Assembly: GCA_050084515.1 (NCBI GenBank)
Contig: CM114271.1
Span: 34,782,001-34,846,000, forward strand
Length of the DNA: 64,000 nucleotides
DNA from: Blasia pusilla
Lineage: Eukaryota
Direction of reading: 5' to 3'
Notes under the pieces: model-generated
Told to the model about the DNA's origin: nothing
Databases searched by the model: none
The model's input: only the letters and a program-made list of their open reading frames with translations
Position numbers and translations under genes: made by a program
In this document: in pieces, positions 7,024 through 52,790 of the stretch
Layout of the letters: the number at the start of each line of letters is the position of its first letter
Position numbering within the stretch: position 1 is the first letter of the stretch

Positions 7024-7029
<6 letters not shown>

Positions 7030-7086
<57 letters not shown>
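7030..7086. repeat. (AT)n microsatellite
   Basis: Perfect TA run. Confidence 0.98.
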
Positions 7087-7092
<6 letters not shown>

Positions 7093-9719: not shown

Positions 9720-10291
9720 ATGATATTTTCTTCTTCTCTAGTTAATTGCTCAAGGACCCTCTCTTTGCATTGTGCAAGAAAATTCGCATGGATGTTTTTG
9801 TGGAAGAACAAGGAGTTCCTGTAGAGTTAGAACTTGATGATATTGATCACTACGCTCAACACTTTCTTATCACTACAACAAAGGAAGATGGAGGGAAGAT
9901 CGTACCTGTGGCAACAATGCGCATTTTTCCTTACAAAATTCAAGAGCATCACGAGAAAATGATCCTCAAAGTTGGACGTGTTGCTGTTTCTCTACCGTAT
10001 AGGAAGCACGGACTTGGGCGCCAAGTGATGGAAATGGCAGAGGAGTATGCCCTTATGCAATGTAGAGAGGAGAGGAAGTATGGAGTTTTCCTTTTACTTA
10101 CTTCACAAGCAGACAAGATAGAATTCTATGAAAAATTAGGTTACTCAACTTTAAGAACGTATAGTGAATTGGATGGATTGGTGGAAGCTAAAAATGTAAG
10201 GAAATTAGATGAGGCTGAACTTGAAGCCCTTACATTCTTAGAGGATGGTATATTACATGTGAGGATGGGTAAATATCTACCCTTTATCTGA
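9720..10291 (+). CDS. GNAT-family N-acetyltransferase, YjcF/ElaA-like, intronless; open frame 9746-10291 with an apparent 1-nt frameshift separating it from ATG 9720
   Basis: IRMDVFVEEQGVPVELELDD, GRVAV..YRKHGLGR (acetyl-CoA motif A), SQ...FYEKLGY and FLEDGILHVRM match the YjcF/ElaA pattern. An in-frame TAA lies at 9743-9745 and the first in-frame ATG is at 9788. Confidence 0.8.
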
Positions 10292-12432: not shown

Positions 12433-15400
12433 TCCTCCCTCAATATCCACTCTCATGTGGACTACTATCTTGGACCGATGCCAAGACCCTTCAAATGTCG
12501 GTGAAGCTGATCTCCGGTCAAAGCTTTCGTGAAGATGTCTGCACGATTATCGTTTGTTGGACAATAGACTAACTTCAAAACCTCTCTCTCGATCAAATCA
12601 CGAACAAAATGATACTCGATCTCTATGTGCTTCGTACGAGCATGAAACACACGATTATGTGCTATGGAAATGCAACTGTGATTGTCACACCACATTACAA
12701 TAGCAGTTTCTGGTGCTTCTCCTATGTCCTCCAATATCCATCTCAACCATACTCCTTCACAAGAAGCATAACAAGTCGCCTTGTACTATGCCTCGATAGA
12801 ATAAAGAGCCACTCTAGGTTGCTTCTTGCTGACCCATGACACCATACCTGATCCTACCAAGAAGCAATAACCCGAAACTGATATACGAGAATCTAAATCT
12901 CTTGCCCAATCCGAGTCACAAAAAGTTTTTATTTCCGTCCCTGCTCCATAGGTGATGCCGTACTCGATAGTGCCTTTGATGTACTTCAACACACGCATCC
13001 CTGCCTTCCAATGGTTCTCACGAGGCTTAGTTAAGAACCTACTCAACACTCCCACATCGAAGCTAATGTCTGGTCTAGTGTTACACAAAAATGTGAAACT
13101 GCCTACAAGCTTTCTATATAACTTTTCATCTACTAATGGTGAAACATCCTCCATCGAGAGTTTCAACTCTACCTCCATTGACAAGACCACTGCCTTACAC
13201 TCGGTCATCCCGAATGCCTTCAAGATTTCTCTAGCATACTTTTGCTGAGAGAGAAAAATACAATCTGACTGTTGCCAAATCTCCAACCCTATAAAGTAGT
13301 GCAAAAGACCTAAATCTGACATTTCAAACTCAGATTTCAACATTCCGTTCATTTCCTCTATTTTCTTACTGTGATCTCATGTGATGAACAGATCATCCAC
13401 ATACAGGACTATCAACATATACATCCCATCTTCGCTAAACACATACAAATTTTCTTCTAACGGACTCTTGATGAGACCCTTCTCTCGGAAGAATATATCT
13501 ATTCGTTGATACCATACCCGTGGGGCTTTCTTCAACCCATACAATCCTCGATGAAGTAAACACACTTTCTCTTCTGATCCGAGTGTCTCAAAACCTGGTG
13601 GTTGAGATACATACACCTCCTCCTTGAGACTCCCATTCAGAAAGGCAGACTTCACATCTTATTGCTATATATGCCAACGTCTTTTTCCTGCCACCGCTAG
13701 AACAATTTGAATGGTTGTCATCCTTGTAGTAGGAGAAAAAGTCTCACAGTAGTCAAAACCTTGGATTTGTGAACATCCTTGTGTAACCAACCTTGCTTTG
13801 ATTTTATCCAATGTACCGTCCGACTTGTATTGGTCTTGTACACCCACTTGGTGCGTATTATCTTCCTATCCTTTGGCTTCTCAACCGAAGTCCAAGTTTC
13901 ATTTCTCTAAATAGCATCCATCTCCATCTGCATGGCTTCTCTCCATTGAGGATGAGCAAGGGCCTCATCCAAGCATGATGGCTCTTCCACCTTCAAGACC
14001 TCTTTCATCAAGGCCATGTTGACAAGATGTGCGGAAGCTCTATTATGCTCCTCTAGTCTCTTGGATCTCCTTGGATACGTAACAACTTCATCAATTTTTG
14101 GTGGATCCTTACCATCCAAGAGCTGCTTTATCCACTTAGGGTATGACGACCGTAGTGGAAGACCAAGCTTATCTTTGTAATCATCACCAAATTCTTCTTC
14201 TTGATGATCCGATGTAAACATTGGTGGTATGCTCTGGTGGGTTATCTCTTCTTTTGATGATAATGTGGACGGACCACTCATATCCGCCACTTGACGAGGC
14301 TGTTCCTAGAATACCACATCACAATTCACAAGCAGCTTCTTTGACTCAGGACACCATAGGCGATAAGCTTTAGACTCATCACTGTATCCCATAAAGATGC
14401 ACTTCCTACTCTTGGACTCCAGCTTGGTCCTGGATGCTTTAGAAATATGTACAAAGCACTCACTACCAAAAGTCCTGAAATGTTCAACTGATGGTATCTT
14501 ACCTGAGTATGATTGATGAGGAGTCATGCCTTGCACTGACTTGGTAGCACTTCTATGTAGAATGTAAATGACAGTATTAACAGCTTCAGCCCAAAATCCT
14601 TTTGTCAAACCTTTTGCCTTCATCATACATCTTGCCATCTCCACCACTGTATGGTTTTGACGCTCAACAACTCCATTTTATTGTGGTGTATGTGTCGTGG
14701 TTAACTGTCGCGTGATTCCATGCTCCCCCAAATATTTGTTGAATTCTGTTGATAAGAATTCTCCTCCTTGATCGGTATGAAGCTTCTATATATTCTTTCC
14801 TGTCTCATTCTCAACCAGGTTGTGCCATACTTTAAATTTTCCAAAAACATTTGCCTTATCACAAAGGAAATACACTCACATTTTCCTACTATAATCGTCG
14901 ACAACTAAAAAGAAGTAGGAAGAACCACCTTATGCCACTATTCTCATTTTACTAGAGAGGTCAGCATGAATCAGCTCGAGAGGATCCTTTGCTCTATTGC
15001 TGGACTCTTATGGAAATGGTTGTTGGTATTGCTTGCCCATCATACAAGCTTCACATGTATCCGACACTCCCAAAATTTTTGGTAAATCAACAACCATGCC
15101 ATATTTCTGCATCTGACTTAGTAAGGGAAAGCTTAGGTGACCAAATCTTTCATGCCACAACTTACTACTTCTAAGATCTTTACCTACACTTGTCGTGAAA
15201 GTATACAACTCGTAGATATTTCCATGTCGTATACCTTCACCCATTACTTTCCCATTGGCATCCTCAATGACTGCTCTAGTTTTCTTGAAACGAACTTCTA
15301 AGTCACGATCATATAATACTACTACTGAAACCAAATTGTGCTTCAACTCTGGTACGTACAGTACATCGGTTAACTTCTTTTCATCTTCTTTTTGTGAGAC

Positions 15401-16115
15401 TAAAGAAATTGTGCCTTTCCCTTCTACAGGGCACTTTGCATTATTCCCAACAGTAACAACGATGGGCTCCTATAGAGGTTGTAAGGAGCTATACCAATCC
15501 TTATGATTGGTCATATGCCTAGATGCTCCACTATCAAGCACCCATGCATCTTCACTCTTTGACTAAGTGGAATGTTCTGCCTCTGATCTTGAAGATTCTT
15601 GATCCTTGTCAAAATTTGCTTCGCGCTTTCTCCTTCTGAAAAATTTCTTGGAAGTAAGCTGATTCTCCAGATTCTGAATCAGAGTCTCATTCCTCGTTTC
15701 ATATTGATTCTTCATAATGTTCCACGCCTCAGCAGCAGTGGTCGTATGTTGAATGAGAGTCATGACAGAATCAGTTACATTTGTGACAATCGCATATAGA
15801 GCATCAGCGTTTCTGTGTTTCCATGCCAGCACTACAACAGGATTGATATCACCAGATGAAGATGAACATGCAGAACTCAAAGTAGCTTGTGGTTTCGAAT
15901 CGACCGCTGTGGCAGTCTCGTAGATCTCAAATGATTCGAGGACAGTTCTCATTTTGAACTTCCACAATGTATAGTTAGATCTATCTAACTTCCCTTCACC
16001 CAGCGGAGGAGGGCGAGCACGAACTGACGAAGAAAGTAGCCATCTCTCAAAATTTTGTGCAAACACACTAGATCGCCAGAAATAAAATACTGGAAAACCT
16101 ACTGCTCTGATACCA

Positions 16116-16549
16116 TGTAAGATAACGAAGAGTGACGAAATCACTGAAACTTTACAAAATTTAGAGATACAAAGTGGCCTAGTCTGTCCGTGTACTCACA
16201 GAAGAGCTTCGATGGAACCTGAACATGGAGATAACTCGACATACGAGAATGCACTACCGCTGCGGCTCCTGACTATTTCACTACTTGGGAAACTAGGGTT
16301 TTTTACCTATTTTTCTTTGTTTCTATTAATAGAAATTTTTTTCGAGGGCTGCGCCCCATCACGGTGCCCCGCACCCTGATGTAATATAGGGTTAGATAAT
16401 CCTAGTAACGCTACTCCATAAACTACCTACGTCATATTACTATGATTCTTTTGACATCTAAGTTGGAACCATCATTCTAGGATTCTCCTCATACAAGGGG
16501 GCCGATTAGATTAATGATGCTCAGAGAAGTGGATGTTGAGAATCCAAAA
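16116..16549 (-). repeat. Copia-1 5' LTR
   Basis: Adjacent to the PBS. The + strand terminal CA is mutated to AA. Confidence 0.93.
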
Positions 16550-17930: not shown

Positions 17931-20900
17931 TGTGAGAAAACAAAATGGGACGAAATCATTGAAATCTATTACAAATCTTGGAGATACAAAGTGGCCTAGT
18001 TCGTCCGTGCGCTTGGAGAAGCTTTGATGGAACCTGCACATGGAGATAACTTGACAAACGAGAATGCGTTACCGATGTGGCTCTCGAATATTTCACTATT
18101 CAGGAAACTAGGGTTTTTTACCTATTTTTCCTCATTTCTATTTATAGAAATTTTTTGCCTCGTAACGCTACTCTATAAACCACCTACGTCATATTACTAT
18201 GACTCCTTCGACATCCAAGTCGGAACCATCAATCTAGGCTTTTCCTCATACAAGGAGGCTGATCAAATTAATGATGTTGAGAGAAGTGGATGTTGAGAAT
18301 CCAACACCCCCCCTCAATATCCACTCTCATGTGGATTCATGTCTTGGACCGATGCCAAGACCCTTCAGATGTCGTTGAAGCTCATCTCCGCTCATGGCTT
18401 TGGTGAAGATGTCTGCATGGTTATTCTCTATTGGATAATAGACCAACATCAAAACCTCTCTCTCGATCAACTAACAAAAAAAATGAACTGAATTTCTATG
18501 TGCTTCGTATGAGCATGAAACACAGGATTATGTGCTATGGCAATGCAACTCTGATTGTCACACCACATTACAGTAGCACTTTCAGGTGCTTCTCCTATGT
18601 CTTCCAATATCCATCTCAGCCATACTGTCACAAGAAGCATAACAAGCCGTCTTATACTCTGACTTGGTCGAAGAAGGAGCCACCGTAGGTTGCTTCTTGC
18701 TGACCCACAACACCACATCTGATCCTACCTAGAAACAATAACTCAAAATTGATCTTCGAGAATCTGAGTCTCTTGGCCAATCCGAATCACAAAAAGCTGT
18801 CATTTCCGTCCATGCTCCATAGGTGATACCATACTCAATAGTTCTTTTGATGTACTTCAATACACGCATCCCTACCTTCCAATGATTCTCACGAGGCTTA
18901 GTTAAGAACCTACTCAATACTCCCACAGCGAAGCTAATATCTGGTCTTGTGTTGCACAAAAATATCAAACTGCCCACAAGCTTTCTGTACAAATTTTCCT
19001 CTACCAAAGGTGAAACATCCTTCATTCATCCATCGGAGGACCCTCTAGATGCAAGAACAAACCCTTCCATGCCATAAAAGGGTTGAACCTTGTAGGGGCC
19101 CGTATCTCCTGGAAGTTGCACCATGTGTCGAACTCTTGGATGAAGTTGTCTAAGTCTATGGTGCTTACCTCACCATACCCATTTTCTGGTGAGGATGATG
19201 TTGAGAGTTTCAACTCTACCTTCATTGGAAAGACCTGTGCCTTACACTCGGTCATCCCGAATGCCTTCAAGATTTCTCTAGCATACTTTTTCTAAGAGAG
19301 AACAATAAAATCTAACTGTTGCTATCAACATATACATCCCATCTTTGCCAAACCCATGCAAAGTTTTTTGTGACGGACTCTTGATGAGACCCCTTTCTCA
19401 AAAGAATTTATCTATCGTTGATACCATACCCTTGGGGCTTTCTTCAACCCATACAATGCTCGATAAAGCAAATACGCTTTCTCTTATGATCCAGGTGTCT
19501 CAAAACTTGGTGGTTGAAAGAAATACACCTTCTCCTTGAGACTCCCATTCAAAAATGCAGACTTCACATTGTATTGGTGTACAGGCCAACGTCTTGTTCT
19601 TGCCATCGCTAGAACAACTCGAATGGTTGTCATCCTTGTAGTAGGAGCAAAATTCTCATAGTAATCAAAACCTTTGATTTGTGAACATCCTTGTGCAACC
19701 AACCTCGCTTTGATTTTATCCAATGTACCGTCCGACTTATACTCGGTCTTGTACATCCCCTTGGTGGGTATTATCTTCATGTCCTTTGGCTTCTCAACCA
19801 AAGTCCAAGTTTCATTTCTCTAAATAGCATCCATCTGCATGTGCATGGCCTCTCTCCATTAAGGATGAGCAAAAACCTCATCGAAGCCTGATGGCTCTTC
19901 CACCTTCAAGACCATTGTCATCAAGGCCATGTTGATGAGATGTGCGGAAGCTCTATTATGCTCCTCTAGTCTCTTGGATCTCCTTGGATGTGTAGCAACT
20001 TCATCAATTGCTGGTGGATCCTTACCATCTAAGAGCTGCTTTATCCACTTAGGATATGACGACCGTAGTGGAAGACCAAGCTTATCTTTGTGATCATCAC
20101 CAAATTCTTCTTCTTGATGATCCGGTGTAAACATTGATGATGTGCTCTGGTGGGTTATCTCTTCGTTTGATGATAATGTGGACGGACCACTGATATCCGC
20201 CACTTGACGAGGCTGTTCTTGAAACACCACATCACGACTCACAAGCATCTTCTTTGTATCAGGACACCATAGGCAATATGCTTTAGACTCATCACTATAT
20301 CCCATAAAGATGCATTTCCTACTCTTGGACTCTTGCTTGGTCCTCGATGCTTTAAGAATATGTACAAAGCACTCACTACCAAAAGTCTTGAAGTGTAGGA
20401 TTGATGGTACCTTACCTAAGTATGCTTGATGAGGAGTCATGCCTTGCATCGACTTGATAGCACTTCTATTTAGAATGTAAATGGCAATATTAACAACTTC
20501 AGCTCAAAATCCTTTTGTCAAACCTTTTACTTTCATCATACATCTTGCCATCTTCACCACTGTACAGTTTTGACGCTCAACAACTCCATTTTTTTGTGGT
20601 GTATGTGTCGTGGTTAACTGTCGCTTGATTCCATGCTCCCCCAAATATTTGTTGAATTCTGCTGATAAGAATTCTCCTCCTCAATTGGTGCGAAGCTTCT
20701 ATACCTTCTTTCCTGTAACATTCTCAACCAGCTTGTGCCATACTTTAAAATTTCCAAAAGCCCTTATATCACAAAGGAAATACACCACATTTTCCTACTA
20801 TCATCTTTGACAACTAAAAAGGAGTAGGAAGAACCACCTAATGCCACTATTCTCATTTTACTACACAGGTCAGCCTGTATCTGCTCTAGATGAGCATTTG

Positions 20901-22743
20901 CTCTATTGCTCGACTCTTGTGGAAATGGTTGTCGGTATTGCTTGCCCATCATACAAGCTTCATATATATCCGACATTCCAGAAATTGTTGGTAAATCAAC
21001 AACCATGTCATATTTCTGCATCTGACTCAGTAAGGGAAAGCTTAGGTGACCAAATCTTTCATGCCACAACCTACTACTACCAAGATCTGTATCTACCCTT
21101 GTCGTGAAAGCATACAACTCGTAGATATTTCCACACCGTATACCTTCACCAACTACTTTCCCATTGGCATCCTCAATGATTGCTCCAGATTTCTTGAAAC
21201 AAACTTCTTAGTGGCGATCACATAATACTACTACTGAAAGCAAATTGCGCTTCAACTCTGGTACGTATACTATATCGGTTAACTTCTTTTCATCTCCTTT
21301 TTGTGAGACTAAAGAAATTTTTCCCTTACCTTCTTCAAGGCACTTTGCATTATTCCCAATAGTAACAATGATGGGCTCCTGCAGAGGCTGTAAGGAGCTA
21401 TACCAATCCTTATGATTGGTCATATGCCTAGATGCTCCACTATCGAGCACCCATGCATCTTCACTCTTTGACTTAGTGGAATGTTCTGCATGTTTGCAAA
21501 ACTCTTTGATTGCTACCCAAACATCTATCTCATGTTCTCCTAGTTCTACATAATTTCCACACTCCTTCTTAGGTCTTAAACAACCGTTCTTCTCATCCTG
21601 ACTCCTCTTTCTACAATCTTTGATAAGATGACCTAGATTACCACAAAAAAATCATTTGAAGGCTTTCCTTGGAAATTTCTTCTTGACATTTGAACTATAA
21701 TCATGATTTCTACCTCTCTGTATGTTGGCAGTTTATGTTGCATCACTTCCCTCTCTTGCTTTGAAACGAATTTCCTCTTCTACCAACATTGCACTAAATT
21801 ATTTAAAAGTAAGCGGTGTGGGTCTTACTTGAGTATTCAATGCAGTGACCAAACTTTCATACCTCGAAGGCAAAATCCTTATGCATCGACGTGCCAAATC
21901 ATTGCTAGACTTTGAAATTCTTACGGACGCCATCTGATCTTGAAGATTCTTGATCCTCGTAAGAAATTGCTCCGCGCTTTCTCCTCCTAAAAATTTCTCG
22001 GATGTAAGTTGATTCTCTAGATTTTGAATCCGAGTCTCATTCTTGGTTTCATATTGATTCTTTAGAATGTTCCACGCCTCAGCAACAATGTTCGTATGAA
22101 TCAGAGTCATGACACAATCAATTACATTTGTGACAAACGCATATAGAGCATTGGTATTTCTACGTTTCCACGCCAGCAATACAACATGATTGATATCACC
22201 AGATGAAGATGAACATGCAAAACTCAAAGTAGCTTGTGGACTCGAATTGATCCTTATGGCCGTCTCCCAAATAATTTGAGGATGGTTCTCATTTTGAACT
22301 TCCACAATGTATAGTTAGACCTATCTAACTTCCCTTCACCCAGTAGAGGAGGGCGAGCACGAACTGATGAAGAAGTAGCCATCTCTCAAGAATTTGTGCA
22401 AACACATTAGATCGCCATATACAAAATACTAGAAAACCTATAACTCTCTTACCATGTGAGAAAATAGAATGTGACGCATGTGAGAAAACCTATAGCTCTG
22501 TTACCCCCGCGTTGTGTTGGCATACCAAGGGCTATGCTCCAGGACCCCCGCGACGCATCAAGGTGCCCCGCACCCTGATGCAATATAGGGTTAGATAATC
22601 CTAGTAACGATACTCCATAAACCACCTACGTCATATTACTATGACTCCTTTCTAAGTCGGAACCATCAATTTAGGCTTCTCCTCACACACGGGGGCCGAT
22701 CAAATTAATGGTGCTAAGAGAAGTGGATGTTCAGAATCCAACA
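17931..22743 (-). mobile_element. Ty1/Copia LTR retrotransposon copy 2, same family as copy 1, decayed
   Basis: LTRs at 17931-18306 and 22455-22743 (the second is rearranged). Degenerate PBS before 22455 and PPT at 18307-18315. gag/PR/IN/RT/RH fragments are collinear with copy 1. The YVDD region is deleted near 19321. Flanks GCAAG/ACAAC match at only 3 of 5 positions. Confidence 0.93.
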
Positions 22744-37783: not shown

Positions 37784-37917
37784 TGTCGTGCGGATACACA
37801 TCGCTACACAACATCCACCGTTGGTCATATCCACACCACACAACACCAATCTTCCCCACACACGGGTAGATCCATACATATATAGAAATCAACTTATACA
37901 TATATATGGAGATCACA
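37784..37917 (-). repeat. Terminal repeat B2 of the Gypsy-like element
   Basis: Aligns to 38401-38540. Confidence 0.88.
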
Positions 37918-38398
37918 AAAAAAAAATAAAGAGTAGTAAAAATGGCACACTCGGCCTTAAACTCCACTCCTCAATCTACATCAACATATTGAGCCTCGTC
38001 CACCCTTTGCTATCAAGGAATCCAGACGTTAACATCCAGTCCTAACTCACACACACGAGCAAGAATGGTACCCCAACGGCCCAACATGAGAAAAATGGCT
38101 TGGGAAAGCCATTTCCCCCCCTTATATAGGGTTCGGAAGAGCCAAAAGGCTCTTCTTGTAAAAATAACTATCCTCCTGGTAACGTGCGCGCACAGGTTAT
38201 CAAGGATGGATGACCTGCTAAACAAGTCACCTGGTTGTGAAAGACCTCAACAGGAAAGTAATCAGAAATAACGTTCCAAAATGGACCTATCCTCAACCTC
38301 ATCTCACACCTCGGGACAAAGATACACTCAAGACAATCTACTGCCTCCTATGCCCTATCCACGATAGATCTCGGCCTATCGGCTACTCAGATGTGACA
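37918..38398 (-). repeat. Terminal repeat A2 of the Gypsy-like element
   Basis: Aligns to 46322-46803. Confidence 0.9.
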
Positions 38399-38400
38399 GC

Positions 38401-38540
38401 TATCATGCGCATACACATCGCTACACAACATACATTCTTCGTCACATCCACATCCACACCACACAACACCGGTTTTTCCCACGAACTGGTATATCCACAC
38501 ATATACAGAAATCAACTCATACATATATATGGAGATCACA
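38401..38540 (-). repeat. Internal repeat B1 of the Gypsy-like element
   Basis: Aligns to 37784-37917. Preceded on the minus strand by the PPT-like AGGGGGGCAG. Confidence 0.88.
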
Positions 38541-38620
38541 CAACTGCCCCCCTAGCTGGCAGTTGGATCCTCCTAACTCCAGATAGAAAATATCACATCT
38601 CCCTGACATGACCTACTACC

Positions 38621-41540
38621 CTATACACATCTCGGACACATCCATCGTCCCGTGGGAACTACATCAAGAGGGGGGGGGTAGACATGACATATGCCACCCT
38701 TGAGAACAACCATCACATACCAACATGGTGGTTGCACCCCTCGCAGATCCGCACAACATACACCTCAAGCATGTAGGTACCACTACCAAGCTCATATACA
38801 CTGTCTCGTCCACGTTCAGAAGGTGACATTCGTATAGTTGCGCACATGATCCTTCCAAACCATACCATCCCCTCTCTAAACCATGAGGACTCCGGTCGGT
38901 AATACCTTGCGCACACGTAGGATTGTGCACCCTGCAGTGACATCTAGCATCGTGGGTACTGCCTGCTGTAAATACATGTAATCTCTAGAATGAAACCTCC
39001 TAATCCCTGGACGATAGCCTCCTCCACGAATGGTAGAGTACCTCAATGTATCCCTATGTTGAGGAATAGCTAAGTTCTCAAAGGCCATGGGCATAACTCT
39101 ACAAAAAATCTCCGCCCTCTGAGAACACGCTTGTACCCACACATCTGGATCATCAAGATCTAACACCTTTGCCATGTCACGTTGAATAGTTGCAGGTAAA
39201 TATGGCTCTCTCCCAAAGAGCAAAAAGTACCGGGAAAATGACGCCAAGGATGCTTGCTGATTAAAGCAATAATCCATAACCAACCATGGCAATTGTAGAT
39301 CCCACCCTGGTCAGTCAACACCTCCGCTAGTGCACCAAACTGACTAAGCACATGATCTAGAAATGCATAAGCTGTTCCCTTGCTCGTCTTGTCTGGTAGT
39401 GCCATCAACTCTATTCACTTGGAGAAATGGTCCACCATGATCAACACATACCTGTGATGACGCCCCGTCAATGGCAAAGGTCCTGTGAAGTCTAAACTCC
39501 ATCGATAACCTAAACCCATAATTGGCAAAGGATGTAACTACGAAGTGGGAGCATTGAAGGATGCTCACATACCATACATCTAGCCACAAATTGATGTACC
39601 CCAGTATGCATGCCGCGCCACCAATATTAAACTTGAAGTAAGCTGTAAGTATGCTTAACTCCAAAATTCCCTAACTCCTGATAGGCATGTCGTACTACAC
39701 ATGCTCGCTAGGAACGATGAGGTACCACTTGTATCCTACCATCTCCCCATACCCAAAAATTGTGAGTCTCCTCCCACTTGAACCTCTTGGCTCTTAGTAG
39801 GATCCGATCCTACTCCCTAGCACTCACTGTGCTCGCTATGATGCCAGTATGCAAGAACTCCAAAACCTCCACGTCGTCATGGATATCACTACCACGTGTC
39901 GTCTCCTCACTGACCTCCCGATCCAAAGACTCATCATTTGACCCTACCACTAGAGTCACCGCTTGCAGCTAACTTGCCATAGTCAACCAACAAAGATAGG
40001 CAAATGCATGCCAACCAGGCACCATCTCCTCATCACTCTCTCCATGCCATCAAGCTCCTGTGTCGTCTCTCTGAATCGGACATGGGTTACGACTCAACCT
40101 ATCCGCATCTTGGTTCAGCCGACCTGGCCTGCGAACCACCTCAAACTCATACTCTTGTAGTAATAGAGCCCACCTGGCAAGCTTTCTTGTAAGCTTTTCG
40201 GACTCCATCAACCACCTCAACGGATGATGATCAGTGATAAGTGTGAAAGGGTTGCCGAATAGATAGCACAATGAAATGTGCCACAATCCACACAGCAACC
40301 AAGCTCTCTCCCTCGTAGGAGTTGTACTTCGCCTCTGCAATGTTGTTTGATTGGCTCGCGTAAGCCACAATGAATTCCTTCTCCTCGTCATCCCTCTGAG
40401 TAAGCACTCCTCCTAGATCCAACATGCTCCAATTTGTATGTAATTGGAATTAATGGGCGACCCCTAATTAGTCTCTGTAAAATGGGTTAGGATGTCAACC
40501 TGTCCTTGAGCTCCTGAAATGCTCGCTCCTAATCATCTCCCCACAACCAAACCTGGTCAAGTCCCGTTAGCAAGGTCAAAGACTTCGCGATTGCACTAAA
40601 ACCCTTGACATACCATCGATAGAAGTTTGCCAGTCCCAGAAACGCTCAAACCCGACTCACATCTGTAGGGCGTGGAATCTGCGCAATAGCCTCCATCTTT
40701 GTCTACTGAACACCTAACCCACTTGGGTATATGGTGTGTCCCAAGAACTCAATCTGCTCCAGAAAGAATCTGCACTTTCCTGGATGTAACTTCAATCCAT
40801 GTAACTGCAATCTCTGAAGCGCCTCCTCCAAGTGTCGCTCATGCTCCTCAACTGTGGAACTGAAGATAAGAATATCATCTATGTAACACCGTACAAAATT
40901 CAAGCCAGCCAGAATTATATCCATCACTCTATGAAACTCCGCACGCACATTCTTTAACCCAAATGGTAAGAACCGCCATTGATACAAGCAAACTCTCCCA
41001 AACCAATCTATCCCCGAGAATGTTGTCCTCAATGTTATCTTCTCCCTGTCTTCCAATCTGATAGAAAGCTAATGATAGCTGGAGATCTAAAGTATTGAAG
41101 ATCTTTGCATGCCCTACCGCATCAAAGATCTCCTCAGGAGCAAGCATGGCATATCGATCTGACTTCGTCTATCGGTTGAAAGGTCGGTAATCCCCGCATA
41201 TCCGCCTATCCGTCCAATTGCCATTTATATCCTTCTTTGTCGGCATGATTGTGGCAGATGCATACTCCCCATGTAATAACTCCACAAGTCTTGCCTCCAA
41301 CAAGTCCTAACTCCTACTCTAAATCAAGGCTCGCACCATATTAGAATACCTGTAGGGTGGACAAAAGATCGGCGTATCACTAGCCAACTCAATCCATATC
41401 CCGAGACCCTTCAGCGTACCCAAGTCTCTCATACTAAAAGAAAAGCAACTGACATGCCCTCTCAAAAACCTATGAACTCGCCGTTGCTCTCCTCCTATCA
41501 ACTTGAGACCTATCACAGACTCCCAAGTCTCCATTATGAC
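38621..41540 (-). pseudogene. pol region (RT, RNase H, integrase, PHD finger) of the Gypsy-like element
   Basis: ORF fragments 41319-41534, 40703-41056, 40050-40391, 39160-39408, 38876-39292 and 38664-38930. Ends WMCPRCV-stop at 38621. Confidence 0.9.
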
Positions 41541-41849
41541 CTCACTTGGAGAGGACGCAACCTCCGGCTTTGGTTGCTATGTAGCAACCCTAGCCACCTC
41601 CGCAACAACCACTCCACTCTGACCTCCTACACCATGCTCCACATCTGAAAAATGAACATGTGCTGCTCTGGCCGCCTTCACACTCTCTGCTCAAACGACA
41701 TCCTAGGAAGTCCATGGGTGCTTATCTCTCCTCGTCCGTCCCCAGCCAATGCCTATACAGACCTTGTAGGCAATGCTGGAACTCGTGGACATGACGACAT
41801 GGATGATATGCGCATTCGTCTCTACTCACCCATACAAAGGCTAACTATC

Positions 41850-42765
41850 CATGTGAGAAAGTTGAGGCCCATTGCCTGCCCCAACACCTATCTCCATGAT
41901 GCCTCAGTCATACCCGTCACCGCCGTAGTATCCGTAGCGAACCCCATGGTGCGCTCGCGCTCATCCGGATTACCTCATCCCAAATCATGCATGACTCTCC
42001 TTGACAAAAGGCATGAGATATTGGGAAGCTCACCAACGTAGATAAGGTTGCCTTCAACTCCTTCACCGTATTGGCTATCGCCAACGGTGGTCTATCATCC
42101 CGCGTCACCACTTGAGACAGACACCTAGAGCCCAAAATAGCATCCACTGTGAGATGTGGTGCTCTCTGAACTCCATTGTATGCTCAACTCTGTACCTCTT
42201 ATGGTATTAGCTTCGTCCAGCACAATTGTGGATGGTGGGCGTCTGATCCAACTCTCGCTACATCTAACAACACAAAAGGTCCTAACCATAACCTCACCTG
42301 ATGCATACTGGTCATCACACGTGCACGAGTGTCTCCCAACAATGGAACGTTCTCCAAAATGTAGGCCGGAGAACATGTTTGACTCTCTTGCAAGTGTCGC
42401 ACTACTCATAGCATCTCCCAAAATATCCCTGACCTCAGATCCTGCAATCCAACCTCGGCCAGTCGATGAATGACCCTCACATGGCCATCCAGCAATCAGC
42501 AAATGAATGGTGCCAACTCTATCTAGATCCTCTGCCCCCACCAAAGAGATGTCGGCGGGTAGTGTATGTTGATACCCCCATACTGCAAATACTGGCAACA
42601 ACCCAGGATACCTCTGGACCAATCTCGCCAAGTGACGTAATGATACTCGCCGTGCGGTCTTATCTCTCTCCACATAAAGGTACGGATGCACCCGTATGCC
42701 CGCCTGCAACACCACAGCTAATCCGGTGCTAATCCCTCCAAAGAGATCACCACTGGATATCACAC
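41850..42765 (-). pseudogene. Retrotransposon-borne DNA (cytosine-5) methyltransferase domain
   Basis: Motif I DLFGGIS, motif IV AGWPCEGHS, motif VI ILENV, motif VIII-like DAHHPQLCW, motifs IX-X DERERTMGF...VLGQAM, in canonical order across frameshifts. Confidence 0.9.
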
Positions 42766-43269
42766 AATGGGTGTGGTATCCAATGGTGTCAACATCTCCA
42801 CTCCAGAAGCCCGATCGCCACCTGACTCTCGTTGCTCCGGGATAAAGGCATGACTCCACGCCTGCCTCACGAGGTCGTCAACACTCCTCTATAGCTCTCA
42901 AGTCGTACCCTACAATCGCGAAGAGGTCTCATCAACATGGGAATAGACACCTGCCATGGCTTGTGTCTCCATGGGACTATCCGCTACTAGGACATCCTCC
43001 GCATGTGCATTCCCCTTTAACTATCTCTGAATGAGAGGCAGTCAACTCTCCACGTTCACACAACATGATGGCCAGCCGGAATACCTCAGCTGGTCCAACT
43101 CCCAACGTCACCAACTCTATGGCAGAAAATAACTGAGCCTGGCTTACCCTGGTGACCACCTCCAACACTGTGGTTGACACTGACTCCACTCGAGCTCGCA
43201 TAGGAGCTGCCACTCCAACTCCTCGTGACATTGATGCACCTGCCTGACCTGTAGGCAGCACTGGTCGTC

Positions 43270-44984
43270 AAGGCACCATCAATGGTGTGTGAAGTGCCTC
43301 TGACAACATGAACAATTGTGGAACCCTAGCTTGCCGCCCATCGGTCCCCTCTGCTGGGTCAATCTCAACTCCACCTCTCAATGGCTTAGTGCCTCTCGTA
43401 GCATCCCAAGTTACCACCACAGTAGCCTCAACCTGAGCCGCACTACACATAAACCCCATATTAGCAAGATCCTCACCCGGATCAGAGTAAGAGGTAGAAG
43501 CTGGAGCCACACTAGCTACTCTCGGCTCCCTGCCTTCCCTGAGCTGCATCATCGTCATGGTAGCAATCCTCTGCTCCAATTGATTGATGCGCAAGAGAAG
43601 CGCCGTCTCTTGTGCTCCCGCTCCATCTCCTCTGGCAAGTGGTGGTCTTCTACCACCACATCCAACAAAAACTCCTCGACCTCCTCCAGGTTGACCGCCC
43701 CCACGCCCTTGGCCTACCTCTGGACGTGCCTCTCGATACAGGTCAAAACATCTATCCCTAGTGTGACCATATCTGTGGCAATAGTCACACTCGTACTGTG
43801 GTGGGGCCATCCTCTATGGCTCCTGAGCAATCGGAGGCGCTCGTGGTCCTCTCCCATGCTATGGGCAGTCTTTCTACCTATGGGCCCCTCCATACGTCCA
43901 ACAAGACAACATCGGTCCCTGCTGGGCAACATATGTAGGTCGGGTCGTTGCCTCATAGGCTCACGGTACCCGCCCTGCTCTTTGGGCACACTGGCCCGCT
44001 CCCGTTGTCGTGGTGCTCGCTGTGGCAAGTGTGGGGTTACCGTCGCTCGTGGACCCGTCAACTCTCAAGAAAATCCAGTGGTCACTACCTCCTCATCACT
44101 CATGTTGAGCTCAATACGCTCAGACAAATCAAAGACCACCTTCAATGTGAGCTTCGCCATGTGAATCAGCACCGCATTTGGACTTTCCTCCGGAGTTCTC
44201 GGTCCAGAACCCTGTACCAGTACTAGATTGACTACGCCTCAATCACTCCATAAGTAACAATGATCACCCTCCTCATGCGCGTGAATGCCTCTCTTAGACT
44301 CTTACCCAATCATTGCTTAAAATCTTGTAGACTCTTCAGCTTGCTGGTACGTAGGCCCTAGTAGCTCTTTCCCAACTGTCAGAAGAACTTCACTAAGGGA
44401 CTGAAGCTGGGTGGCCCTCTACCACCAAAGCTCTCTGCCATATTTCTTGTCTCACTGCCCTCCTCTCCATCTAGTCTCTAGGCTCATGGTGTGGGTCTCT
44501 CTCCTCTCACAATCCCATCATATGCCTCACAACCACTAGTGGACACATAGCCTCGAGCCCAATATATCCTCCACGCATCAATCTCTTCTAAATATAGTGA
44601 TCAAAGCTCCATGTAATCATTCATCGGAGGATGCTCCAAGTGTTGGAACAACCCCTTCCATGCCATGAAAGGGTTGAACCGTGTCGGGGTCCATATCTCC
44701 TCGAAATCGCATCATGTGTCGAACTCCTGGATGAAGTCATCTAAGTTGATGGTGCCTACTGCACCTGAGAAATGACGCACGCCTTGGTGGCCCATATCGT
44801 CAATCTCCTCCCAATTGACACTACCTCCGTCTGCGATCTAGTCACCAGATTCGCTATCCACTGATGAAGATCCAGCCACAGATGGAAGTCGAGTTAGCTC
44901 CTCACTCGTAACCCTTCGATATCTCACTTCACCCCGTGTCACACCACTACTACTGCTCGCACTACCCGATTCTTCCGAACCCAT
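43270..44984 (-). pseudogene. gag of the Gypsy-like element
   Basis: LDDFIQEFDT...FMAWKGLFQHLE capsid-like segment, CCHC knuckle and RGG-rich tail. Many stops. Confidence 0.75.
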
Positions 44985-46321
44985 GAAGAATGCCGTAATG
45001 AAAACCCTGTCTCACCCGCTCAAGCACTCAGACTCACCACGAGTCTCCCATACTCCTCACTAGCTCACCTAGGCTAATGGTAATCTTGTGACGACACATA
45101 TGTCCTCATGCACACTTAACACTCGGGCTCACCATAAGCCTCCCAAATAACTCACCTAAACTGCTGACACTCTCGGGTCATACATGTGACCCCTACTCGG
45201 CAACCGACATATATCCACAGACATGCTACACATGCATGGAGACTACACTCGTCACCATCGCTACACCCATCTAACCTCAACAACTACCCAATACCCAGCA
45301 CTCTCAATCACATAAGATAAGCGTGGGAAAAGGGACCCAAAAGGGTAACCTGATCACGCCCTCCAACCTACGACACCGTCAACACTCACTCCTCCATGTG
45401 GTACGGCAACCTCCGCAAAATGATACTCTCCTCGACACGCGTCAAACCTTTCATCATTGGATGCAAACTATTGTCGGCATCGACACGTGTGTCTCCATCA
45501 CAACCCTCGCAAATCCCAATCAGTGAAGAACTAATGAGTCAACCCCCAATTGACTCGTAATAGCTACCAAACTCCCATCGCAAATCCCACCATGCTCGCG
45601 CAATACCAAGTCTCAAAATGCTCTCCTACTACGTAACTCAACGCAGTCACATCCGCCCCCTCAAACTGGTAGCCTGAACCAACCGCGTCTGAATCCTTGC
45701 CCTACCATGTCCGCTATTGCCTCTACCACGTCGGCCTGACCTTACTACGTCCTTTCGACTGCCCACGTCGGCCCTGCTCGACTACGTCAACCTTGACCCC
45801 GACCACATCCGGTTTGCCTACCACGTCCATATTTTGACTACGTTGGGCACCTACCACGTCGTGAGGAAGACGCCGACCACGTCCGGAAAAGGAGGAGGGG
45901 GGAATGGCCCTTGGCTTGTGCCCCAAATCAGACTTTTGACTCCCGATGTACTCTGTCATGCCCTGCCCTCTTCCGTCTTTGACCTAACCCTAGCCCTAGG
46001 CAGCTACGCCCTAGCCTGGCCGCCTTTACTTGACAATCCCTGACAGCTACAAGTCAGGTTTCAAATTCCTCTTCTCCTTCTCCCGTTACTCTCGTCGATA
46101 CACTTGCCGCCCCACTTTGCGCTATGCCAAGCCGTTGTCCCCCGTCAACTTGCACTAGAGAAATTTGAGAAAAACATAGAGTGCTTCCACGCACAGCCTT
46201 TTGAACAAAAAAATGACAACAAAACGTCAACTAGAGTCTCCAGGGGCTCCCGGTCGAGGCAACTCGCTTGCCTACCTGCAACCAACGAATTCCCACCAGC
46301 CCCCTGACATCTTTCTCATGT

Positions 46322-46803
46322 AAAAATAAATAGTAGTAAAAATGGCACACCCGGCCTAAAACTCCACTCCTCAATCTACATCGGTATATCGGGCCTCGTC
46401 CACCCTGTGCTATCAAGGAATCCAGACGCTAGCACCCAGTCCTAACTCACACACACGAGCAAGAATGGTACTCCAACGGCCCAACATGAGAATGATAGCT
46501 TGGGAAAACCATCTTCCTCCCTTATATAGGGTTGGAAAGAGCCAAAAGGCTCTTCTCCTAAAAATAGCTATCCTCGTGGTAACCTGCCCGTACAAGTTAC
46601 CAAGGGTGGATGACTTGCTCAACAAGTCATCCGGTTTTGAAAGACCTCAACATGAAATTTGTCAGAAACGATGGTCGTGACACAACTGAAACCTATCATC
46701 AACCTCATCCGACACCTCGGGACAAAGTTACACTCAAGATTGTCTGCTGGATCCTATGTCTTATCCATGATAGATCTCGGCCTATCGCTACTCAGATGTG
46801 ACA
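46322..46803 (-). repeat. 5' terminal repeat A1 of the Gypsy-like element
   Basis: Aligns to 37918-38398 only. No B segment is adjacent. Confidence 0.9.
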
Positions 46804-48239
46804 GAGTTCATGAAATGGATGAAAGTTTTCTCTTGGGTTATAAGTCCTTGGATAAGGTGGAAGGTACGATAATTCAAAGGTTTGACATAAATTTAAATAT
46901 TTTGCTTATTAATATTAGAAGTATTTGCATATATTCGAACATCTTGAACTTATACTTCATATAAGGAGTTCTGATTAATTGTTTTATAAAATAATTAATA
47001 TCCAAGAAGTGTATTTTGAAATTTTGTTTCCAAATTATTGTTTGATTTTCCCTATACTAAGGTAAGTTTTCCATAGAAACGAGGGATTTTAAATCAATTT
47101 TAATTTTTTATTAAAAAAAACTATTTCCTGAAAATTTTTGTAGCCCTTCTATTTATTTTTTCATTTTTTTAATTTAAATTAATATTTCAGCATTTAGGAA
47201 AAAACCTATACTTGTAATTTCAGGTTAATTTTGGAAGTGAAAATACAGATGACTTTAGAACTACGTCATTTAATGTATTTTTCAAGTTTTTTTTGTCAAG
47301 GATTTTTTAAGAAAATTTTGAGACAAACTTGGGATCAAAATGATTTTTAACTAATTGAGAAACGTTGGAGACCACTATCAAATCTGTCCATGAATTTATG
47401 ATTTCTTTTTAGGTTTATCCTATACTAAGCAAAAATAAGAATGGGTAAGGTCGTAATAATAGTTAGTTAATTTTAATTAACTCAAATTCAAACATCTTCC
47501 CCATGAAATCTTCTAGAGTTTTTTTCATTTTTTTAATCTTTCCTCATTTGAGAAATTATTTTTTGTAGGTGAATGCAAACATAATTTAAAGTTTAGTTTT
47601 GAGGGGAAATCAAATTTTCTTTTGGGAAAAAATGAAAAGGATAATAGGATAGTAATGGGAGAAGAATTATTCTTCGAAATAAAGGAAGACATATTATTTC
47701 TATAAGATTTTAACTTTCAAGTTAGATTGGGGGGAAATTTAATGCCTCTTTTGGGAAATAAATTCATCAAAATAAGTGGTTTTCTTTTATTTATTGAAAG
47801 ATGGGGATTGGGTAAAAGGATGAATTTTTTATAAAATTTTAATAAAGGAAAATTATGTTTTAATTAAATTATAAAAGAAAATAATGTTTGAATTACGTTT
47901 AGTGAAAAATATTGCATGGGATAAAATTAGAAAGGGATTTGGGTGCAAATGGAAACAAAATTTACTTATTAATTCATATTTTATTTAATACTATAATAAG
48001 TGAATATAAATATTACTAAATTATTAAAAAAAATTAGATAAATAAATAATTTGTACCTTAATTCATATGTAATGGAAAGGGAAATTGAATTTTAATGGAA
48101 AAGAAATAGATTTGGTTCGAATTTTATAGAAGGATGAATTTACGTACGGGACTAGGATATCATTTATATTTGAATTGAGGAGTGTAATTACTTACAAGAA
48201 TGAAATGTAATAATTCTTCTAAGATTTTTTAGAAGACCG

Positions 48240-50577
48240 CAAATGGTCCCCAAGTTACATCTATCACTCTTGCAAATTATCAACCCAAATGAAGTTGTGA
48301 CCACAATCTAAAAAATGACCTTCTTGGACCCAAAGCACTAAACCTTGAATGAAAAAAAAAAGGTCTTTTAATTTTTCATCTTGTCCAACTTTCCCATCTT
48401 AAGCTGAAATTTAGCCCATATAGTCTCCAAGCTGCATCTAGAACTCTTGTTAGGTTTCAAGCAAAATCGAGTTGAGACCACAAGCTCAAAAATTGGTAAG
48501 TCCTTTTTTGACCCAAACCATGAGACCTTCTATCAAAACAAGGTTTTTTTTCATTTTTCATCTTGTCCAAATTTCCCATATTCAGCTGAAATTTGGCCCA
48601 TATGGTCCCCAAGGTGCATGTTCCACTCTTGCTAAGTTTCAAGAAAAATGGAGTTGTGACCAAAACCTCAAAAAATAACTCCTTTTTGGACCCGAACCAT
48701 CAAACCTTGAATGAAAATAGGGTTTTTTTATTTTTCATCTTGTCCAACTTTCCCATCTTGGGTTGAGATTTGGCCCACATAGTCCCCAAGGTGCATGTTC
48801 CTTTCTTGCCAAGTTTCAAGCAAAATGGATTTTTGCGTAAAAACCTCAAAAATTAATAACCCCTTGTTGGACTCGAACCATCAAACCTTGAATGAAAATA
48901 GGGTTTTTAAATTTTTCATCTTGTCCAACTCTCCCATCTTGAACTTAAATTTGGCCCACATTGGCATCAAGGTGCGTGTTCCACTCTTGCAAAGTTTCAC
49001 CCACACTGGAGTTGTCAGCAAAACCTCAAAATTTGGTAAGTCCTTTTTGGACCCGAATCATGACCTTGAATGAAAATGTGGTTTTCTAATTTTTCGTTTT
49101 GTCCAACTCTCCCATCTTAAACTGAAATTGGGCGCACATTGTCCTCAAGATGCATGTTCTACTCTTCCAAAGTTTCACCCATAGTGGAATTTTGAGCAAA
49201 ACCTCAAAAATTGGTAAGTCCTTTTTGGACCCGAACCATCTTACCTTCTCTCAAAATAAGAATTTTTTCATTTTTCATCTTGTCCAACTCTCCCATCTTG
49301 AGCTGAGATTTGGTCCACATGGTCTCCAATGTGCATCTAGCACTCTTCCCAAGTTTCATGAAAAAAAGAGTTGGGACCACAAGCTCAAAAATTGGTAAGT
49401 CCTTTTTGGACCCGAGCCATGAGACCTTCAATCAAATTAAGATTTTCTCATTTTTCATCTTGTCCAAATTTCCCATCTTAAGCTGAAATTTGGCCCAGAT
49501 GGTCTCCAAGGTGCATCTAGCACTCTTGCAAAGTTTCAAGAAAAATTGAGTTGGGACCACAAGCTCAAAAATTGGTAAGTTATTTTTGGATCCGAACCAC
49601 GAGACCTTCTATCAAAATAAGGTTTTTTTTATTTTTCATCTTGTCCGAATTTTCCATCTTGAGCTGAAATTTGGCCCACATGGTTGCCAAGGTGCATGTT
49701 CCACGCTTATCAAGTTTCAAGAAAAATAAAGTTTTGAGCAGAACCTCCAAAATTAATAACTTCTTTTTGGACCCAAACCATTACATCTTCTATCAAAATA
49801 AGGCTTTTGCATTTTTCATCTTGTTTGGTTTTCCTATCTTGAGCTGAAATTTAGTCCACATAGTCTCCAAGATGCATCTAACACTTTTACCAAGTTTCAA
49901 GAAAAATGGAGTTGGGACCACAAGCTCAAAAATGGGTAAGTCCTTTTTGGACCCTAACCATGAGACCTTCAATCAAAAGAAGGTTTCTTTATTTTTCCTC
50001 TTGTCCAACTTTCCCATCTTGAGCTGAAATTTGGCCCACATGGTCCCCAAGGTGCATCTTCCACTCTAACCAAGTTTCAAGTAAAATGGAGTTGTAAGAA
50101 AAACATCAAAAATTAATAACTTCTTTTTGGACCCGAACCATTAGACCTTAAATGAAAATAGGGTTTTTAATTTTTCATCTTGTCCAAATCTCCCACCTTA
50201 ATTTTGCCCGAACCATGAGACCTTTTATCAAAATAAGGTTTTTTCATTTTTCATCTTGTCCAACTTTCCCATCTTGAGTTGAAATTTGGCCCACATGGTC
50301 TCCAAGGTGCATGTTCCACTCTAGCCAAGTTTCAAGAAAAATTGAGTTGTGAGCAAAACCTCAAAAATTAATAACTCCTTTTTGGACCCAAACCTTTAGA
50401 GCTTTTATCACAATAAGATTTTTTCATTTTTTATCTTGTCTAAATTTTCCATCTGGAGTTGACATTTGGTCCCCATGGTCTCCAAGGTTTATCTAGCACT
50501 TTTGCCAAGTTTCAAGCAAAATAGAGTTGGGACCACTAGCTCAAAAATTGTTAAGTCCTTTCTGGACCCGAACCATT
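48240..50577. repeat. Tandem array of a ~180-bp unit, about 13 diverged copies
   Basis: ATTTTTCATCTTGTCCAA-like anchor recurs near 48371, 48553, 48730, 48911, 49089, 49270, 49451, 49631, 49811, 49991, 50170, 50246 (shortened unit) and 50426. Confidence 0.93.
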
Positions 50578-52790
50578 TGTCGTGGGCATACACATCGCTG
50601 TCATCGAACACACACACAAACATACACGATCCCATGCTAACTCATGGCATCCATACATAGAGGCCAGAAGTACCAAAATATCTCCAATGAAGTAAGATCC
50701 AATCTCTCTCTACATCATCTCACACCATAGCTCTCAAAGGTGTGCACTCTCTCTCATGTCAAACCAAACCCACTCTCCTAATGAGAGGCTTGGGTTACAC
50801 TCACAAGGCAAGGGACCATAGCTCCGTGGCCTTATGCCAAGAGGTTCAACAAAGAGAGAATGAGCTCTCAAGCTCTCTCTCTTGGAGGTATATCCCCTTC
50901 CCTCTCCCAAGCCCTCTCAACGGTAACCTATACTCGCAGGTCACCTCCTTGGCTCTTGACCTGCTGCTGCTCAAGGGCCACTTCCCAAAGTGGAAAGTCA
51001 ACTATCCCCAACATGGAAACTTACCCGAAATAGTAAGTTTCTCATTATGGCTCCAAATGAGCCGAAACGAAGGGGAAACCTGCTCTCTCAGGTTTCTCGG
51101 GGCCTCAATAGGTCATCCTCGACCTCCTAGGCATGTCCTACACTACTCATGCAGACGCTCTGCTAGATCCTATCGATCTATCCTAACAGTCGTGACAGTT
51201 GTCTTGCGCATACACATCGCTACACAACATACATTGTTGTCATCGAACACACACATAAACACACACGATCCCATGCTAACTCATGGCATCCATACGTAGA
51301 GGCAAGAAGTACCAAAATATCTCCAATCAGACGTGCCATATGCCAACCTCTCGAACATCCATCACAGACTAGCATCGTGGCCGTACCACGAGCAGAACCA
51401 CACAACATAGAACGCAAGCCCGCAGGAACTACTGCTGAGCTCGGATCTACTGTACCATCAATGTTAGGAAGGTGACATAGTGCACAATTACGCACATGGT
51501 CCTTCCATACCATACCATTGCGTCCCTCCAGCAAGAGAACACCGGATGGCAAAACGTCACGAACTCTCAGGATAGTGCGCCCTGCAGTCACATCCAACAT
51601 CGTCGGTGCCATCTGCTGCAAGTAGACATAATCTCCCTGATGAAACCTCTGGATAGTTGGTCGATAACCACCACCCCGAATAGTCGCATACCTCAACGTA
51701 TCCCGATGTTGCCCAATCGCCAAGTTCTTGAACGCCATGGGCATCACTCTCCGGAACAACTCAGCCCTCTGAGAGCATGCTCGCATCCATACATCTGGGT
51801 CATCAAGGTCCAACACCTCACCAGCATCTTAACAAATGGCCGTAGGTAAATCTTGCTCTGGGCCATAAAGTAGCAAGTACGGTGAAAAAGACGCTAGGGA
51901 TGAGTGCCTATTGAATCTATATCCCATTGCCAACCACAGAAACTGGAGGTCCCAATCTCCTAGGTAACCTCTCTGCAAGTCATACTTGCGGAAACCCCTC
52001 TTCACCGTCTGCACAACTCTCTCCGCTAATCCATCCACCTCGAGATAATCTCGCGAAGTCGTGCGGTGGTCGATCAGCGCCTGATCACACAAGGCCTGGA
52101 ACTCACCGCGAAACTTAGTACCCTGGTGTGTCAACACCTCAGCCGGTGCGCCATAATGACTCAACACTCTGTCAAGGAAGGCATAAGCTACTCCCTCACT
52201 CGCTCTGTCAGGCAATGCAACCAACTCGATCCACTTCGAGAAGTGCTCGACCATCACCAACACATAACGACTGTGACGCTCAGTTAAAGGCAAAGGTCCT
52301 GCAAAATCTAAACTCCATCTATACCCTAAGTCCATGATCCGTAATGGATGCAACTGTGGAGTCGGAGCATTGAAGGATGCTCGGACCCGATCACACACCA
52401 TGCACCTGGCAAAAAACTGCTGAACGTCAGTCTGCATGCCTCGCCACCAATACTGAATCTGGAGCAAGCTGTATATCCGCTTCATCCCAAAGTGACCCAA
52501 CTCCTCGTGGGCATGTTGCACTAGTCGTGCTCTCTGTGAAGGATGCGGCACTACGCGTACTCTACCATCCTCCCAAACCCTCAAAACATGTGTCCCCTCC
52601 CAATGGAACCGTCGGCCTGGCTGCCAGAGGATCGATCCACTCTCTAGCACCCACGGTGCTCGCAACGCTGCCAGTACGAAGGTACTCCTAGACTACTCCA
52701 TCATCATGAATATCTCGGCCACCTGTCGTCTCCTCACTGGCCTCGGGATCCAAGGACTCTCCACTAGACCTCGCCATCGAAGTCTCCATA
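50578..52790 (-). mobile_element. Second, related Gypsy-like element, 3' part only: integrase, partial PHD and B1-A2-B2 terminal repeats
   Basis: IN zinc finger HEELGH..CMVC, WSLDFAGPL, GLAER and PHD start MLCGS..VCDGCSRGWH. Repeat 50578-50688 ~ 51200-51327 with junction GTGACA-GT-TGTC at 51192-51203. Abuts the 180-bp array. Confidence 0.9.

Follow-up and report, generated by a model that had tools for sequence, protein, structure and literature searches.

Retrotransposons that carry a cytosine-5 DNA methyltransferase (DNMT) have been described in dinoflagellates and in the charophyte alga Klebsormidium (de Mendoza et al. 2018, PMC5890265), as the first-pass annotation of the present locus had correctly stated. 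KnitGypsy-Dnmt3 of Klebsormidium nitens combines DIRS-like repeats with Gypsy domains, and the figure legends of that report describe an A-coding-B-A-B layout for DNMT elements, KnitGypsy-Dnmt3 included. In that report, retrotransposon DNMTs are described as establishing CG methylation de novo, and its authors suggest self-methylation of new cDNA. A 2026 preprint (10.64898/2026.05.21.726589) mentions "streptophytes (Gypsy-DNMT3)" and extends the list of DNMT-bearing elements to Cymbomonas and Euglena. On this subject, the relevant passages of a 2025 paper (PMC12344493) cite only the 2018 report, and a passage of the opinion paper PMC6338049 states that methylase-encoding transposons are absent in land plants. 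Full-text searches of the literature outside subscription journals returned no report of a DNMT-bearing retrotransposon for land plants, including bryophytes, or for Closterium.

Here, we analyzed a stretch of 64,000 nucleotides from the liverwort Blasia pusilla (GenBank assembly GCA_050084515.1, contig CM114271.1, positions 34,782,001 to 34,846,000 of the forward strand), termed the window, whose first letter is position 1 in all coordinates given below. We conclude with high confidence that it contains a decayed DNMT3-like domain that was a regular part of pol in a Ty3/Gypsy-like family with the A-coding-B-A-B layout, of the KnitGypsy-Dnmt3 kind, residing in a liverwort. The copy is a dead element of the known Gypsy-DNMT3 type and extends the host range of this type to embryophytes.

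To delineate the methyltransferase, the window was searched in six frames with a family profile of 341 positions built from 38 full-length relatives. The minus strand at 41828–42748 matched profile positions 14–334, corresponding to 321 of the 341 positions, as three collinear pieces far beyond chance; this was the sole match region in the window, and a resemblance by chance was rejected based on the profile E-values. The first piece (42452–42748; profile 14–116, E = 3.3e-31) comprises motifs I to IV, from DLFGGIS to GWPCE, and its comparison with alignment A1 by hhalign yielded a probability of 99.7% and an E-value of 6.6e-26. The second (41971–42453; profile 117–279, E = 6.6e-33) contains motifs VI and VIII together with the target-recognition region and three in-frame stops, and the third (41828–41974; profile 286–334, E = 6.9e-11) contains motifs IX and X and one in-frame stop. 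Three-frame translation of 41600–43000 located motif I (DLFGGIS) at 42748–42728, motif IV (GWPC) at 42490–42479, motif VI (ENV) at 42354–42346, motif IX (ERERTMGF) at 41962–41939, motif X (LGQAMG) at 41884–41867 and, in combination with the profile, motif VIII at 42264–42214, all on the minus strand. The motifs follow the canonical order without the permutation typical of DRM, and the catalytic cysteine is retained in GWPCE. The domain is full in extent with no intron-sized gap between its pieces, confirming the earlier description of intronless motifs lying on the strand of pol. A stop-to-stop open reading frame (ORF) of 250 aa (42125–42877, minus strand) opens the region. The antisense ORFs across the DNMT region matched no Pfam family, neither tblastn nor the profile revealed a further copy of the DNMT elsewhere in the window, and an Rfam search of the whole window gave zero matches.

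The first-pass annotation had described the methyltransferase as complete, which is correct for its extent but not for its integrity. Two frameshifts, near 42452 and near 41972, and four in-frame stops (42408–42406, 42201–42199, 42186–42184 and 41890–41888) leave no uninterrupted coding sequence, and an additional frame change is located immediately upstream of motif I. Furthermore, the PCQ of motif IV is changed to PCE (Gln to Glu), motif VIII has lost both of its arginines, and from the 41 columns with a conservation of 85% or more across 74 family rows, 29 are kept and 12 are changed. We considered whether the segment could nevertheless be a working or domesticated host gene. Only the preserved motif order speaks for this reading, which we regard as extremely improbable in view of the broken frame, the altered residues of motifs IV and VIII and the location of the domain in a decayed element with repeats diverged by 14%. 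The window copy is thus long dead: neither a methyltransferase nor a protease nor an unbroken pol protein can be made from it, and it has no present function.

The DNMT remnant resides in a Ty3/Gypsy-like element of about 9 kb on the minus strand (37786–46812). In this element the DNMT accompanies the Gypsy pol set (RVT_1, RNase H and rve integrase), and the order is gag knuckle, deleted protease (PR), DNMT, reverse transcriptase (RT), RNase H (RH), integrase (IN) and PHD finger. Translation revealed a gag-like zinc knuckle of the form CX2CX4HX4C at 43748–43789 inside an ORF spanning 43268–43813; Pfam gave no significant gag or zf-CCHC match in the window element, and the Closterium relative P0280 has a zf-CCHC upstream of its DNMT. 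Directly preceding the DNMT, a conserved linker at 42766–43020, in a frame different from that of the first DNMT piece, aligned by tblastn with residues 1–81 of the relative P0004 at 43% identity. Downstream of the DNMT, the RT (40685–41309; family RT profile E = 2.8e-33 and 5.1e-25, PF00078 E = 1.6e-20), the RNase H (40128–40455; family RH profile E = 3e-16 and 3.7e-18, PF17917 E = 9.4e-11), the DDE integrase (39295–39728; family IN profile E = 9.9e-32 and 6.1e-13) and the PHD finger (38621–38765; PF00628 E = 1.5e-6, family PHD profile E = 3.5e-10) each extend over two frames owing to frameshifts. No tyrosine recombinase (Phage_integrase) was matched in the frames of the element scanned, the DDE integrase being present. 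This domain map agrees with the initial placement of the DNMT between gag and RT, on the same strand as pol.

Neither Pfam nor the family PR profile detected a protease in the window element. In the relative P0018 from the liverwort Calypogeia fissa, the protease (residues 101–196, E = 2e-31 with the family PR profile) lies between a block containing AEVFRLA and the linker, whereas in the window the AEVFRLA block (43171–43052) and the linker (43020 onward) nearly adjoin. Since the blocks that flank the protease in P0018 are almost contiguous here, we attribute its loss to an internal deletion, with the deletion site at 43020–43052 of the minus strand.

The element is bounded by an A-coding-B-A-B arrangement of repeats, all on the minus strand, rather than by plain LTRs. 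The LTR-like repeat A1 at the 5' end (46322–46812) is 85.8% identical to A2 (37922–38407) over 492 columns with a K2P distance of 0.148. B1 (38403–38543) and B2 (37786–37920), the latter forming the 3' end of the element, share 81.6% identity in an alignment of 141 columns and have a K2P distance of 0.153. This divergence of about 14% indicates an old insertion, and the repeat ends are too diverged for calling a target-site duplication. Immediately upstream of B1 on the element strand we observed a purine run, AGGGGGG, at 38544–38560, which is the position expected for a polypurine tract if plus-strand synthesis starts at B1.

The remaining window contains several further features. Exons of an alkaline/neutral invertase extend over 3131–5866 on the plus strand (PF12899, E = 1.6e-94), and the exon at 5198–5866 is 96% identical to Calypogeia fissa, 91% to Riccia and about 82–87% to other land plants, which places the host among the liverworts, near Calypogeia. 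A plus-strand ORF at 9746–10291 encodes a GNAT acetyltransferase domain (PF13508, E = 1.8e-10), and Copia-type remains with RVT_2, Retrotran_gag_2 and a retroviral SH3-like domain occupy 12786–16195 and 19859–22314 on the minus strand. A stretch of 149 nt in the gag-side region of the element (44617–44765) is 82% identical to 19026–19174 in the Copia-rich region. A tandem satellite at 48300–50000 consists of at least 8–9 copies, 60–92% alike, of a unit of about 180 bp. A related Gypsy fragment at 51220–52692 (minus strand) is about 72% identical to the main element at the nucleotide level and contains an unbroken integrase (family profile E = 4e-71) with no RT, RNase H or DNMT alongside.

We then turned to the identity of the methyltransferase. 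The first-pass annotation had named the lack of a significant DNA_methylase (PF00145) match as an outcome that would refute it. PF00145 indeed gave no significant match for the window's own sequence, neither for the DNMT ORF (none at E ≤ 0.1) nor for the frame pieces (none at E ≤ 10), and a phmmer search of the second piece against the PDB sequences returned none at E ≤ 1. The 250 aa ORF, searched by phmmer against 1.84 billion representatives, yielded 407 matches with E-values of 1e-3 or lower, 71 of them at 1e-10 or lower, and the best showed 68% identity. PF00145 was detected at E ≤ 0.001 in 14 of 16 relatives scanned, 13 of them above the Pfam cutoff of 22 bits (for example 45.5 bits for P0016, 45.7 for P0057 and 32.3 for P0280); P0003 and P0076 had no match at E ≤ 0.001. 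As the window itself lacks a PF00145 match, its assignment is transitive, proceeding through relatives that pass PF00145, through the profile search of the PDB and through the predicted fold.

A profile of 18 relatives searched against the PDB sequences gave the strongest match to DNMT3A (E = 4.4e-22), followed by DNMT3B and DNMT3C (about 1e-19), DRM (9e-13 to 2e-10) and M.HhaI (3e-8), and no DNMT1 chain was retrieved at E ≤ 0.01. An AlphaFold model of the relative P0020 (pLDDT 82.2, pTM 0.82) had as its top Foldseek match the DNMT3A chain 6f57_D (E = 1.9e-16, target TM 0.82), and among the matches listed for this model all were DNMT3A, B or C. At the family level, the profile and the predicted fold thus place the enzyme closer to DNMT3 than to DNMT1, DRM or bacterial enzymes, in line with the initial suggestion of a DNMT3-related domain that is not permuted.

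Domain mapping of 182 relatives showed the arrangement PR-DNMT or DNMT-RT in 37 and RH-DNMT or DNMT-IN in 38, with 107 being too short to tell. Named relatives in the window's order (PR-DNMT-RT) belong to Closterium spp. and to C. fissa. Looking up the names of 30 relatives identified P0003 and P0018 of C. fissa, located on different large contigs, several Closterium strains and a Scenedesmus "pol" protein; a further search added more Closterium as well as Chromochloris. In P0003, P0004 and P0018 of C. fissa, the DNMT is found at the same position of pol and behind the same upstream linker as in the window. Continuous PR-DNMT-RT-RH-IN proteins are represented by P0274, P0276–P0278 and P0280, and P0275 comprises PR-DNMT-RT-RH without IN.

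A scan of metagenome contigs, which is biased towards the window's order because an alignment of this order (type A) served as the query, yielded 46 loci, with 40 in the window's order, 4 in the other order and 2 with the DNMT alone. Several of these loci extend through PR-DNMT-RT-RH-IN-PHD, and one (L019) has a clean ORF of 2034 aa. Another locus, L001, is open from 976 to 8226 (7.2 kb, gag-PR-DNMT-RT-RH-IN-PHD) save for one stop at 5083 between DNMT and RT, which may represent either a single mutation or a site of read-through. The A-coding-B-A-B layout was clear in 2 of the 16 loci examined for it (L028 and L037), partial as B-x-B in L011 and L042 and reduced to a 29 nt B in L013; it was not seen in L034, L046 and the rest of the 16.

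One public DNA run, holding a 0.06 share of the sampled words, was compared with the element; the public runs listed as sharing sampled words included no RNA runs. A total of 5349 contig pieces matched the element at a likeness of at least 80% (443 at 99% or more, 1146 at 95–99%, 2075 at 90–95% and 1685 below 90%), covering all 30 bins including those of the DNMT. The summed depth, which is no copy number, was 1174–2502 in the DNMT bins and 3400–4525 in the RT bins. The coverage of the DNMT bins indicates that the DNMT part is repeated along with the rest of the element.

These data bear on the question of whether a fragment of a host DNMT3 was captured just one time, by this copy alone, or whether a DNMT retro-pseudogene inserted into the element. 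Such an event might be surmised from the window, where the DNMT segment is single-copy and the related integrase fragment at 51220–52692 has no adjoining DNMT. The shared pol position and linker of the three C. fissa sequences, the presence of the DNMT in the polyproteins of Closterium, its placement in 40 of the 46 metagenome loci, and the many distinct contigs of the DNA run that cover the DNMT bins like the remainder of the element contradict it, and we rejected this very improbable explanation. The absence of the domain from other copies, which had been named beforehand as another outcome that would speak against the DNMT belonging to the element, was not what we found in the relatives. 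Judged from sequence comparison, the DNMT is a family trait and not a one-off capture, appearing in the same place in C. fissa, Closterium and the metagenome loci.

A tree of the DNMT domains, comprising 75 rows, was calculated with the quick method of IQ-TREE, without an outgroup and with SH-aLRT as the sole measure of support. In it, the RT-RH-DNMT-IN-PHD type formed a single group of 44 rows (SH-aLRT 95) that included none of the window's type. The window copy is positioned with the PR-DNMT rows, its branch being long (1.01), and the smallest well-supported set holding it contains 31 rows, of which 23 are of type A and 3 of type B, the other 5 being undetermined. Separately, we noted a small sister clade of polyproteins formed by P0067, P0301 and P0302, in which P0067 carries both a C5-methyltransferase (PF00145) and a Dam-like adenine methyltransferase (PF05869), resembling the dual-methylase "EpiLTR" elements of the preprint 10.64898/2026.05.21.726589.

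To assess selection on the domain, we determined dN/dS for the DNMT domains of the relatives' loci by the Nei–Gojobori method. Among the 30 metagenome loci with a single-frame DNMT, five domains were free of stops, and most relatives fetched as DNA were decayed. Two stop-free copies of the window's type, L001 and L002, gave dN 0.034 and dS 0.256, corresponding to a ratio of 0.13; the dN/dS test proposed at the outset points to purifying selection. The median DNMT ratio was 0.39 over 157 pairs with dS of 0.05–0.3, 0.31 over 40 pairs with dS of 0.3–0.8 and 0.12 over 20 pairs with dS of 0.8–2. For the 48 of the 157 pairs that also have RT, the medians were 0.39 for the DNMT and 0.42 for the RT, and this similarity indicates that the DNMT is constrained about as strongly as the RT.

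The family polyprotein runs from gag and protease through DNMT, RT and RNase H to the DDE integrase and the PHD finger, and in intact relatives the DNMT is translated together with pol and maintained under purifying selection. The best PDB matches of the PHD finger were the PHD fingers of CHD4, PHF12, PHF21A, KDM5, ATXR5 and UHRF1, several of which read unmodified H3K4. By analogy to the chromodomains of chromoviruses, the PHD finger behind the integrase would probably read histone H3 tails and steer integration. The DNMT in turn probably methylates DNA de novo, acting on the new cDNA of the element or on the DNA at the insertion site, and the ancestors of the window copy may have done likewise, as we infer by analogy to those retrotransposon enzymes that de Mendoza et al. 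2018 (PMC5890265) assayed. The original suggestion that the element carried its own methyltransferase stands for these ancestors; for the window copy, with its frameshifts, stops and altered motif residues, it does not.

The occurrence of this lineage in liverworts contradicts the statement on land plants in the cited passage of PMC6338049. The host-range extension is also backed by the annotated C. fissa fragments, and the Closterium relatives are intact. The members in the liverwort of the window, in C. fissa and in Closterium suggest that the lineage crossed the move to land or re-entered after it. A retrotransposon with its own cytosine methyltransferase is a rare case of a parasite owning a silencing tool of its host, and the natural sequences of the family allow one to ask what such enzymes methylate and how an integrase-bearing element replicates with DIRS-style repeats. 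The most interesting by-product of the analysis is the wider picture of the family with its two domain orders, PHD tail and DIRS-style repeats. It is plausible, if somewhat short of probable, that Gypsy-DNMT3 represents, rather than a peculiarity of Klebsormidium, an old green-plant lineage of chlorophytes, Zygnematophyceae (Closterium) and liverworts, marked by its DDE integrase, PHD finger, DNMT3-like enzyme and A-coding-B-A-B layout, within which the DNMT moved in pol between a place before the RT and one after the RNase H.

Compared with the described systems, the window element shares with KnitGypsy-Dnmt3, as described in PMC5890265, the Gypsy-type RT, RNase H and DDE integrase, the unpermuted DNMT3-like domain in pol, the lack of introns and the DIRS-like A-coding-B-A-B layout. 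Purifying selection on the DNMT is likewise common to both, with a Ka/Ks below 0.2 given there for KnitGypsy-Dnmt3 and the ratio of 0.13 between the two stop-free relatives. The two differ in that the host is a liverwort, and thus a land plant, instead of a charophyte alga, and in that the window copy is dead. The kinship is based on architecture and on the figure legends of that paper, and the liverwort, Closterium and metagenome family could be separate, originating from a second capture of a DNMT3-like domain by a Gypsy element with convergent resemblance. In accordance with such a separate origin, DNMT capture is known to recur, the DNMT is located in two different places of pol within the family, the 2018 paper presents the capture as particular to the lineage of K. 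nitens, and no Klebsormidium protein was found among the relatives by word-based searches and look-ups of 30 names. The last point is weak evidence, as these searches depend on shared words and length limits, and both DNMTs are DNMT3-like and unpermuted while the unusual combination of the A-coding-B-A-B layout with a DDE integrase is shared with the KnitGypsy-Dnmt3 legend; we therefore consider a separate origin unlikely and retain the assignment to the KnitGypsy-Dnmt3 kind.

SymbioDIRS-Dnmt3 of Symbiodinium, presented in the same paper, also combines a DNMT3-like domain in pol with the A-coding-B-A-B layout, but carries a tyrosine recombinase, whereas the window element has a DDE integrase (rve, with an H2C2 zinc domain in relatives). 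The chlorophyte RT-RH-DNMT-IN-PHD elements of Scenedesmus ("pol", KAF8056149.1) and Chromochloris contain a homologous DNMT and the same tail of integrase and PHD finger; their DNMT follows the RNase H, in contrast to its location before the RT in the window's type, to which they form a sister group. The catalytic domains of host DNMT3A and DNMT3B are the best sequence-profile and fold matches to the family and exhibit an identical motif order and a short target-recognition region. Unlike in these host enzymes, the domain of the window lies inside a retrotransposon polyprotein with no adjacent PWWP or ADD domain, neither of which gave a Pfam match upstream of the catalytic domain, and the sole reader is a plain PHD finger far off, downstream of the integrase. 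In chromoviruses, the chromodomain behind the integrase is presumed to guide integration; the window element similarly appears to have a histone-reader module fused behind its integrase, the putative reader being a PHD finger rather than a chromodomain.
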